NCBI RefSeq assembly: GCF_002854065.1
Contig: NZ_CP024147.1
Length of the DNA stretch: 64,000 nt
Source of the DNA: Escherichia coli
GTDB taxonomy: Bacteria; Pseudomonadota; Gammaproteobacteria; Enterobacterales; Enterobacteriaceae
Reading direction: 5' to 3' (one strand)
Shown here: in pieces, positions 1,501 to 4,745 of the stretch
Layout: each line of letters starts with the position of its first letter
Position numbering within the stretch: the first letter of the stretch is position 1
Notes under the pieces: model-generated
The model's input: the letters and a program-made list of their open reading frames with translations, nothing else
What the model was told of the DNA's origin: nothing
Database searches by the model: none
Position numbers and translations under genes: made by a program

Positions 1501-1515
1501 GTTGGAGTCATTACC

Positions 1516-1656
1516 GGTTCGTAGCTGACTAAACGTGAGTTCTTGCATCAACAGTCGCGCCGCGCTATTGGCATAAATTAACTGTTCCTCAAAGGGCGAA
1601 ACGATCCAGACAGGACTGGTGAGTAAGTCCAGGGTATTGAAGTTGTGCGTAATCAT
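1516..1656 (-). pseudogene. dgcM: 5-prime remnant (47 codons) of diguanylate cyclase dgcM (ydaM) truncated by IS1
   Basis: Minus-strand reading MITHNFNTLDLLTSPVWIVSPFEEQLIYANSAARLLMQELTFSQLRT runs directly into the IS1 right end at 1515; divergent from zntB as in K-12. Identity is from memory of the DgcM N-terminus and gene context. Confidence 0.6.
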
Positions 1657-1889: not shown

Positions 1890-2894
<1,005 letters not shown>

Positions 2895-2940
2895 CAAAAG
2901 CAATTTTTCCGGCTATCTGTATACAAAAACGCCGCAAAGT

Positions 2941-2954
2941 TTGAGCGAAGTCAA
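2941..2954 (+). promoter_or_regulatory. FNR-type box TTGAGCGAAGTCAA upstream of FnrS
   Basis: Matches TTGAT-N4-ATCAA at 8 of 10 positions; centred about 41 bp upstream of the proposed FnrS 5-prime end, as expected for a class II FNR promoter. Confidence 0.6.
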
Positions 2955-2989
2955 TAAACTCTCTACCCATTCAGGGCAATATCTCTCTT

Positions 2990-3111
2990 GCAGGTGAATG
3001 CAACGTCAAGCGATGGGCGTTGCGCTCCATATTGTCTTACTTCCTTTTTTGAATTACTGCATAGCACAATTGATTCGTACGACGCCGACTTTGATGAGTC
3101 GGCTTTTTTTT
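2990..3111 (+). ncRNA. fnrS: FnrS small regulatory RNA (FNR-activated, Hfq-dependent)
   Basis: Sequence GCAGGTGAATGCAACGTCAAGCGATGGGCG...CTTACTTCCTTTTTTGAATTACTGCATAGC... ending in hairpin GCCGACTttgatgAGTCGGC plus T8; lies in the zntB-dbpA intergenic region, where fnrS maps in K-12. Confidence 0.8.
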
Positions 3112-3168
3112 GCCTGTTATTTATCAGCGTCTACCCTTTAAGAGTCCACCCAATGACCGGAGGGAAAT

Positions 3169-3342
3169 ATGACGACACTTATTTATTTGCAAATTCCTGT
3201 CCCTGAACCGATTCCTGGCGATCCTGTTCCAGTTCCCGATCCGATCCCTCGCCCGCAACCCATGCCTGACCCACCACCCGATGAAGAACCGATTAAATTG
3301 TCGCATCGTGAGCGTAGATCTGCGAGGATACGCGCCTGCTAA
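3169..3342 (+). CDS. Small proline-rich protein (57 aa), possibly the K-12 small protein annotated in the zntB-dbpA gap
   Basis: ATG preceded by GGAGGG; translation MTTLIYLQIPVPEPIPGDPVPVPDPIPRPQPMPDPPPDEEPIKLSHRERRSARIRAC. Below the 60-aa cutoff of the ORF track. Coding status unverified. Confidence 0.4.
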   Translation: MTTLIYLQIPVPEPIPGDPVPVPDPIPRPQPMPDPPPDEEPIKLSHRERRSARIRAC

Positions 3343-3371
3343 CTTTGCGTCGATGACCACGAGAATAGATT

Positions 3372-4745
3372 GTGACCGCTTTTTCTACCCTGAATGTTTT
3401 GCCTCCCGCCCAACTCACGAACCTTAATGAGTTGGGTTATTTAACCATGACGCCGGTGCAGGCCGCCGCGCTTCCGGCGATCCTTGCCGGAAAAGATGTT
3501 CGCGTGCAGGCGAAAACTGGCAGCGGCAAAACGGCGGCTTTTGGCCTCGGCTTGTTACAGCAAATTGATGCGTCGCTATTTCAAACCCAGGCTTTAGTGC
3601 TGTGTCCTACGCGTGAACTGGCGGATCAGGTGGCAGGTGAATTGCGTCGGCTGGCGCGTTTTCTGCCAAATACCAAAATTTTGACGTTGTGCGGTGGTCA
3701 ACCGTTCGGTATGCAGCGTGATTCGTTGCAACATGCGCCGCATATTATCGTGGCAACGCCGGGCCGTTTGCTGGATCACCTGCAAAAAGGCACGGTATCA
3801 CTGGATGCGCTGAATACTTTGGTGATGGATGAGGCCGACCGCATGCTGGATATGGGATTTAGCGATGCCATTGATGATGTCATCCGTTTTGCGCCGGCAT
3901 CTCGACAGACGCTTCTGTTTTCGGCAACCTGGCCGGAAGCCATCGCCGCAATCAGCGGACGAGTGCAACGCGATCCTTTGGCGATTGAAATTGACTCAAC
4001 AGATGCTTTGCCACCCATTGAACAACAATTTTATGAGACATCCAGTAAAGGCAAAATTCCTCTGTTGCAACAGTTATTAAGCTTGCATCAGCCATCCTCT
4101 TGCGTGGTGTTTTGCAATACCAAAAAAGATTGCCAGGCTGTCTGCGACGCGCTGAATGAAGTAGGGCAAAGTGCATTGTCATTACACGGCGATTTGGAGC
4201 AACGCGATCGCGATCAGACCCTGGTACGTTTTGCTAACGGTAGCGCCCGTGTACTGGTCGCGACTGATGTTGCTGCGCGTGGTCTGGATATTAAATCGCT
4301 TGAGCTGGTGGTGAACTTTGAGCTGGCGTGGGACCCTGAAGTTCATGTACATCGCATCGGTCGTACAGCTCGTGCAGGAAATAGCGGTCTGGCGATCAGT
4401 TTCTGTGCTCCGGAAGAAGCACAGCGGGCCAATATCATTTCTGACATGTTGCAGATAAAACTTAACTGGCAAACGCCGCCAGCTAATAGTTCCATTGTGA
4501 CGCTGGAAGCAGAAATGGCAACGTTGTGTATCGATGGCGGGAAAAAAGCCAAAATGCGCCCGGGTGATGTATTAGGTGCACTGACAGGAGATATCGGGCT
4601 TGATGGCGCAGATATAGGCAAAATCGCCGTGCATCCGGCGCATGTCTATGTCGCGGTCCGTCAGGCTGTTGCTCATAAAGCATGGAAACAGTTACAGGGC
4701 GGGAAGATTAAAGGAAAAACGTGCCGGGTGCGGTTATTAAAATAA
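3372..4745 (+). CDS. dbpA: ATP-dependent RNA helicase DbpA (DEAD-box, 23S rRNA-specific)
   Basis: 457-aa ORF with GSGKT Walker A and DEAD (VMDEADRML) motifs; GTG start. Confidence 0.93.
   Translation: MTAFSTLNVLPPAQLTNLNELGYLTMTPVQAAALPAILAGKDVRVQAKTGSGKTAAFGLGLLQQIDASLFQTQALVLCPTRELADQVAGELRRLARFLPNTKILTLCGGQPFGMQRDSLQHAPHIIVATPGRLLDHLQKGTVSLDALNTLVMDEADRMLDMGFSDAIDDVIRFAPASRQTLLFSATWPEAIAAISGRVQRDPLAIEIDSTDALPPIEQQFYETSSKGKIPLLQQLLSLHQPSSCVVFCNTKKDCQAVCDALNEVGQSALSLHGDLEQRDRDQTLVRFANGSARVLVATDVAARGLDIKSLELVVNFELAWDPEVHVHRIGRTARAGNSGLAISFCAPEEAQRANIISDMLQIKLNWQTPPANSSIVTLEAEMATLCIDGGKKAKMRPGDVLGALTGDIGLDGADIGKIAVHPAHVYVAVRQAVAHKAWKQLQGGKIKGKTCRVRLLK

Follow-up and report, generated by a model that had tools for sequence, protein, structure and literature searches.

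The closest described relative of the gene studied here is ynaL of Escherichia coli K-12. VanOrsdel et al. (2018; PMC6001520) placed the 57-aa YnaL between fnrS and dbpA, detected it in MG1655 by SPA tagging on the chromosome, and proposed an operon link of ynaL with dbpA. Unannotated at that time, YnaL was also positive in a tetracycline ribosome-profiling screen (PMC6001520). A literature search for a functional study of YnaL, be it of its function, a partner or a phenotype, found none, and a PDB search for YnaL relatives likewise gave none.

Several other known systems resemble ynaL in part. SecM-secA, TnaC-tnaA and MifM-yidC2 likewise have a short ORF a few tens of nucleotides upstream of a gene, and ynaL is like them in its weak downstream start region, its hard-to-translate proline motif and its conserved peptide sequence. 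Unlike them, the ynaL ORF survives without the downstream gene in several genera, its stall motif is not invariant, and an alternative RNA structure is unsupported. The proline-rich spacer of TonB, an (EP)n-(KP)n rod, has the alternating X-Pro pattern in common with YnaL, a pattern for which a polyproline-II rod is expected. The Pro-rich antimicrobial peptides, such as oncocin, apidaecin and Bac7, bind the ribosomal exit tunnel and are strongly cationic. YnaL is like them in being short and Pro-rich and in carrying one PRP motif, and it is encoded beside a helicase whose site of action is the peptidyl-transferase centre. However, the Pro-rich part of YnaL is acidic, and the PDB search showed no sequence relationship.

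Identity and position of the ynaL gene

We analysed a 64-kb window, that is, the whole stretch of DNA under study, in which zntB (1911-2894), fnrS (2990-3107), ynaL (3169-3342) and dbpA (3372-4745) follow one another, all on the plus strand. The ORF list gives ynaL an ATG at 3169, 57 sense codons and a TAA at 3340-3342. The 57-aa product, MTTLIYLQIPVPEPIPGDPVPVPDPIPRPQPMPDPPPDEEPIKLSHRERRSARIRAC, carries the RefSeq name "proline-rich small protein YnaL" (WP_001296046.1) and matches the Pfam family PF23677, 'Protein YnaL-like', with E=2.1e-40 and 136.9 bits against a cut-off of 27. The alignment runs end to end, with residues 1-57 on profile positions 1-57. All 57 of the 57 residues are identical to the YnaL printed in PMC6001520, and, as in E. 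coli K-12, the gene lies between fnrS and dbpA; this is the same gene, with no difference in sequence or position. Of 5426 complete E. coli genomes, 5390 contain the 521-bp segment 2880-3400 at no less than 95% identity by megablast; among the matches listed, ynaL is annotated beneath all 24 full-length ones. It is practically certain that the ORF is ynaL and a real protein gene.

An earlier note on this DNA, made without knowledge of the annotation, had described a 57-codon ORF with a strong ribosome-binding site lying right after the FnrS terminator. These descriptions agree with what we find. The Shine-Dalgarno sequence GGAGGG is read at 3159-3164 on the plus strand, 4 nt ahead of the ATG. 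The fnrS sRNA gene (plus strand, Rfam RF01796, 134.8 bits) ends in a terminator with a stem at 3084-3103 and a T-run reaching about 3111, and ynaL starts about 58 nt past that T-run. Epitope tagging and ribosome profiling, which the note had suggested as checks, are both already published and were both positive (PMC6001520). The note had thus come upon something real but not new, and had missed the existing annotation of ynaL. As a discovery the gene carries little weight: it is annotated, named and experimentally detected, and since its validation in 2018 it has been carried by RefSeq, EcoCyc-type annotation and Pfam. What goes beyond the 2018 paper is fnrS as the constant neighbour of ynaL and the conserved DNA in its last 18 codons.

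At the left end of the window, an IS1 transposase ORF (997-1513; Pfam DDE_Tnp_IS1, E=2e-78) abuts the truncated 5' end of dgcM (1514-1656, minus strand). K-12-like collinearity starts only at 1514, inside dgcM and about 47 codons from its start, and the remainder of dgcM is not in the first 6 kb of the window. The dgcM gene, which encodes a diguanylate cyclase, appears to be IS1-disrupted in this strain.

The proline-rich core as a selected protein segment

A scan of a genome collection gave 30 loci, counted here as species, from Escherichia, Salmonella, Citrobacter, Enterobacter, Lelliottia, Silvania, Pseudocitrobacter and Klebsiella. The order zntB-fnrS-ynaL-dbpA holds in 30 of the 30. Conservation of the frame, which the earlier note had named as a check, is complete: ynaL is open from its ATG in 30/30 species, and every insertion, deletion or other length difference is a multiple of three. 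The Shine-Dalgarno sequence GGAGGG is kept in 24/30, and the other six have the near variants GGAGGC, AAAGGG, AAGGGG and AGAGGGG.

We then estimated selection on the acidic alternating-proline core (codons 18-41, 3220-3291, plus strand, DPVPVPDPIPRPQPMPDPPPDEEP) by pooled Nei-Gojobori counts over 14 divergent representatives. The core has a dN/dS of 0.08 with a dS of 1.2, next to 0.04 and 1.5, respectively, for dbpA. Compared with distant homologues, including those of Phytobacter and Erwinia type, the first and second codon positions of the core are identical at 30-35 of 38 sites (about 85-90%), whereas the third positions are identical at only 3-9 of 19, which is near random. Since synonymous sites are saturated and non-synonymous sites conserved, the Pro-rich core of ynaL is a real, selected protein segment. 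Purifying selection on its amino-acid sequence is strong, and the consensus is SDPVPTDPVPxPDPIPRPQPMPDP.

The unusual composition noticed earlier, a chain of alternating prolines followed by a basic tail, is as described. Proline accounts for 16 of the 57 residues of YnaL; residues 10-41 hold 16 prolines in 32 positions, in strict x-P alternation, and are acidic, with seven Asp/Glu and one Arg. The tail reads RERRSARIRAC. Of the 521 stop-free stretches in the window that reach 50 aa or more, no other has a 32-residue segment with as many as 16 prolines; the runner-up has 11. The first 15-17 residues are poorly conserved and mostly hydrophobic. AlphaFold2 models the Pro-rich part with a pLDDT of about 90 as an extended chain with no helix or strand. 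We propose that the selected product may be the polypeptide itself and not only a cis-acting leader. In this proposal the core of about 25 residues would form an extended, polyproline-II-like rod behind a short, variable, hydrophobic N-terminus, and the rod would act in trans by binding a partner. That YnaL is trans-acting, with the acidic Pro rod as the functional, partner-binding part, is a reading to which our analysis would give an even chance.

Against the TonB model, YnaL gives a weak profile match (E=2.9e-4) at positions 80-112. TonB membership was rejected, as YnaL scores 20.8 bits where the cut-off is 315 and only the Pro-rich spacer aligns; YnaL has neither the TonB C-terminal domain nor a transmembrane anchor of normal length. 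Judged from the sequences, the likeness between YnaL and TonB is compositional, with no evidence of homology.

Some copies of ynaL depart from the common form. E. coli E69 (3501-3641 of locus L009) carries an in-frame 33-nt deletion that leaves 46 aa. In Klebsiella michiganensis (120-374 of L039) the stop is lost, and the resulting 84-aa ORF overlaps the dbpA start; about 1000 contigs carry this form. The match of E. coli STEC388 (H25) to 2880-3400 breaks near 3180 and is split between two places, and disrupted or frameshifted copies also occur among the proteins P0133, P0137 and P0146. The interruption of ynaL in some strains suggests that the gene is dispensable, at least under some conditions. 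Dispensability and the short length of 57 codons are what a chance ORF without function would show. Such an ORF would not be expected to have a Pfam match at E=2e-40, a frame intact in 30 of 30 species, a place in nearly all complete E. coli genomes and a proline content at the extreme of all stop-free stretches in the window, and we give this explanation next to no credence.

Neighbours and transcription of ynaL

A profile search for YnaL in 1.84 billion representative proteins returned only 32 matches, whose sources (Phytobacter, Kosakonia, Scandinavium, Klebsiella, Erwinia and Mixta) are, by their names, Enterobacteriaceae and Erwiniaceae. Distant homologues keep the core and have a different ending, for example ...PDPPFDPDPRPIVDPPPHR. 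In three of these genomes dbpA does not follow ynaL directly. Phytobacter diazotrophicus (L033) and an unclassified Enterobacter (L037) both have the order zntB-fnrS-ynaL-terminator, followed by a convergent ttcA; an Erwinia-type contig (L034) has zntB-fnrS-ynaL-terminator-ttcA-dbpA. FnrS upstream of ynaL was confirmed by Rfam in all three. It is therefore fnrS, not dbpA, that invariably accompanies ynaL, and adjacency to dbpA is a feature of one clade only. We conclude that ynaL is a genuine small-protein gene of Enterobacteriaceae and Erwiniaceae, and a translated one according to the published MG1655 data.

Over the 30 species, synonymous diversity within zntB is lowest in about its last 13 codons (2853-2894, codons ~315-327), and the FNR box of the fnrS promoter, TTGAG-cgaa-GTCAA, lies at 2941-2954, just downstream of the zntB end. 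The low diversity at the zntB 3' end is probably the constraint of a promoter or upstream element reaching into the CDS. Three plus-strand copies of the heptamer TCTACCC fall within 430 nt: at 2962-2968 in the fnrS promoter spacer, at 3130-3136 in the candidate ynaL -10 region and at 3384-3390 in codons 5-7 of dbpA. Seven copies are present in the window as a whole, where 3.4 would be expected, and this clustering is statistically unconvincing because the heptamer was chosen after being seen. TACCCAT at 2964-2970 fits the NarL heptamer consensus TACYYMT.

A simple scan with a 9-of-12 threshold found no strong sigma-70 promoter in 2800-3500. Sites were also scored for conserved position with an approximate sigma-70 position-weight matrix, its frequencies following published compilations. 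Within the fnrS-dbpA interval, the sigma-70-like site whose position is best conserved is a candidate ynaL promoter at 3110-3137 on the plus strand, below the threshold of the simple scan and with a -35 of TTGCCT (3110-3115) that abuts the T-run of the fnrS terminator, a 16-nt spacer and a -10 of TACCCT (3132-3137). Its median score over the 30 species is 7.4 bits, compared with 4.9 at the 99th percentile of the coding background. None of the 30 species departs from the octamer TCTACCCT at 3130-3137, which lies past the fnrS terminator and ahead of the ribosome-binding site of ynaL; the Erwinia-type locus L034 has TTGCCA-17-TATGCT at the same position. On this evidence ynaL is most likely transcribed from its own weak, predicted promoter abutting the fnrS terminator.

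Read-through from fnrS was also considered as the main source of a ynaL-dbpA mRNA. FnrS is FNR-induced, and in Shigella dbpA is down in anaerobiosis by -1.86 log2 (PMC4229854); this source is unlikely, since dbpA falls under that condition. Pairing of FnrS with the start regions of the two genes found no support. The duplex with the ynaL start region has an energy of -13.1 kcal/mol, equalled by 16% of shuffles, and that with the dbpA start region -11.3 kcal/mol, equalled by 30%; the FnrS pairing site is unconserved across species. A rival explanation is that RNA or DNA is conserved here, for instance as a promoter region, a target of FnrS or a longer FnrS transcript, and that the ORF is incidental. 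The constant position of ynaL directly after fnrS fits this explanation, as does the constraint at the DNA level on codons 41-46 and 50-56. Yet the core has the reverse pattern, with its synonymous sites saturated and its non-synonymous sites conserved, the protein has been detected experimentally (PMC6001520), the FnrS-ynaL duplex is matched in energy by 16% of shuffles, and in 2900-3500 no Rfam family other than FnrS was matched even at E<=10. We judge the explanation very improbable and keep to ynaL as a protein gene.

Downstream of ynaL lies dbpA (3372-4745, plus strand; Pfam DEAD, Helicase_C and DbpA), which encodes a DEAD-box 23S rRNA helicase. It begins 29 nt past the ynaL stop with a GTG start and a weak ribosome-binding site, and across the 30 species the gap is 14-29 nt. 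A scan of 3112-3500 found no terminator between the two genes. The ancestral ynaL terminator would be absent from the Escherichia/Salmonella/Citrobacter/Enterobacter/Klebsiella clade. With no terminator and a gap of only 14-29 nt, ynaL and dbpA probably share a transcript, and a degree of translational coupling would be plausible as well. The dbpA start region itself is strongly conserved. Positions 3358-3386 (CGAGA-N8-GTGACCGCTTTTTC) are nearly invariant in the 30 species, the region reads TGACCGCTTTTTC in 25 of them, and the Erwinia-type locus, where dbpA comes after ttcA, has the close variant AGAGAGTAATTTGTGAGCGCTTTTTC. The first codons of dbpA show the lowest synonymous diversity within that gene.

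This arrangement is what would be expected if ynaL were mainly a cis-acting leader ORF governing dbpA translation or transcript integrity. Ribosomes slowed at DPPPD, in an EF-P-dependent manner, or at the rare codons AGA-AGG-AUA would then open or occupy conserved blocks at the ynaL 3' end, and the sequence of the peptide would count only while it is a nascent chain. The close spacing, the lack of a terminator and the GTG start with its weak ribosome-binding site in the 30 species all speak for such a leader, as does the operon link suggested by VanOrsdel et al. (PMC6001520). The low dN/dS is itself no obstacle, because arrest peptides are also conserved in their amino acids, so that dN/dS alone leaves room for a cis role in the dbpA-linked clade. 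The motif DPPPD adds to this side of the argument, as it joins tripeptides that reportedly depend strongly on EF-P.

The motif is, however, not constant. DPPPD is kept in 25 of the 30 species; four (E. albertii and three Citrobacter loci) have DPSPD and C. amalonaticus has DPPQE, so that PPP is lost in 5/30, and E. albertii YnaL has no Pro-Pro anywhere. Moreover, ynaL with the same core is kept where it has its own terminator and no adjacent dbpA, as in L033, L034 and L037, and it is thus not simply a dbpA leader. We regard a leader function as the main role of ynaL as distinctly unlikely, while a cis leader role could coexist with a trans role of YnaL. The earlier note had left it at a small protein or a leader. 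The SPA tag, the ribosome profiling and the dN/dS of 0.08 bear out the protein; the leader as primary role is disfavoured.

Conserved DNA blocks at the 3' end of ynaL

The last part of ynaL behaves quite differently from the core. Over codons 42-57, dS drops to 0.13 and dN/dS is about 1. Two blocks on the plus strand stand out in the 30-species alignment. Block 1 (3289-3305, CCGATTAAA(T/A)TGTCGCA, codons 41-46, PIKLSH) is identical in the 30 species save for the one T/A position. In Block 2 (3316-3336, AGATCTGCGAGGATACGCGCC, codons 50-56, RSARIRA), positions 3317-3336 are invariant in the 30 species and 3316 is G in two Salmonella loci. A 10-nt variable spacer parts the blocks, and the four codons between them vary freely. 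In essentially all 30 species the same codons are used, CCG ATT AAA TTG TCG CAT in Block 1 and AGA TCT GCG AGG ATA CGC GCC in Block 2; the latter include the three rarest codons of E. coli, AGA, AGG and ATA. Synonymous diversity in the blocks is 0.00-0.01 (0.00 in Block 1), whereas dbpA and zntB average 0.46. All 686 eight-codon windows of these two genes lie above the blocks, and the lowest of them are at the dbpA start and at the zntB 3' end, the latter overlapping the fnrS promoter. Block 2 has one copy in the whole window.

Block 2 follows dbpA rather than the ynaL reading frame. In Kosakonia (L041), in L040 (labelled Salmonella enterica) and in L042, ynaL ends just after Block 1, and Block 2, as AGATCTG[C/A]GAGGATACGCGCC, persists as non-coding spacer upstream of dbpA. 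Since Block 2 is kept outside the ORF, it is a DNA or RNA element and not a peptide feature. Where dbpA is not downstream, Block 2 is absent. Neither block is found in L033, L034 or L037, the last of which keeps P-Y-K-L-S by means of different codons. Thus the blocks, like the adjacency of dbpA, are features of one clade only, and we infer that they belong to a dbpA-associated non-coding element of the Escherichia/Salmonella/Citrobacter/Enterobacter/Klebsiella clade. The basic tail RSARIRAC, together with its rare codons, is probably a by-product of this dbpA-linked element and not a selected peptide feature. Taken as a whole, a small protein YnaL combined with dbpA-linked DNA blocks is the best explanation of the locus, and we hold it to be quite likely.

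Ultraconserved DNA at the ynaL 3' end, beside the dbpA start region, is also what a leader acting on dbpA would call for, and Block 1 is paired with the GUG and codons 2-5 of dbpA when the E. coli RNA is folded to minimum free energy. This helix is absent from the RNAalifold consensus, and both of its sides are invariant, so that covariation cannot decide on it. Further RNA results speak against the leader. Folding stability is not unusual in 3270-3420 (z=0.03) or in 3108-3200 (z=-0.28), and there is no covarying helix, as RNAalifold gives only weak local stems without compensatory changes. The rare codons, for their part, are untranslated in Kosakonia, L040 and L042, where the ORF stops before Block 2.

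Several specific forms of a regulatory element were tried and rejected. A UCGCA/UGCGA stem and a GCG-AGGAUA-CGC hairpin with a CsrA-like GGA loop are broken by the natural change C3323A in L040 and L041, and the CsrA-like GGA of Block 2 is lost in K. michiganensis (L039), where GAGGAT has become GACGCT; the variants in these three loci are not compensatory. A mimic of 23S rRNA hairpin 92 serving DbpA autoregulation was dismissed too. E. coli hairpin 92 is AUGGC-UGUUC-GCCAU; the ynaL-dbpA spacer holds no similar hairpin or UGUUC loop and shares only chance 7-8-mers with it.

The natural variants of Block 2 are compatible with a -10-type element on either strand (plus, TGnGANGNT; minus, TANNNT), and Block 1 contains a -10-like TAAATT/TAAAAT. 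With the approximate matrix applied to the 30 species, no conserved -35 was found for the internal candidates on the plus strand, TAAATT (3294) and TGcGAGGAT (3321), or for those on the minus strand, TATCCT (3330) and GACAAT (3302). A control element could take the form of an internal promoter, with TAAAWT in Block 1, or TGnGAGGAT plus a GC-rich discriminator in Block 2; equally, a binding site within the 5' untranslated region could be what is conserved. The 20-nt invariant part of Block 2 offers a concrete and cheap target for studies of dbpA regulation.

The constancy of fnrS argues against the published suggestion to seek the function of YnaL mainly in relation to DbpA. A joint reading would take the last 54 nt of ynaL as an ultraconserved, hitherto undescribed control element for dbpA, a gene for a ribosome-assembly helicase, and fnrS-ynaL as an ancient two-gene module, and we consider it possible, though unlikely. 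If it were true, ribosomes finishing ynaL over AGA-AGG-AUA would couple dbpA output to the translational state of the cell, and the Pro-rich protein of the fnrS-ynaL module would have a role tied to the physiology of FnrS or ZntB.
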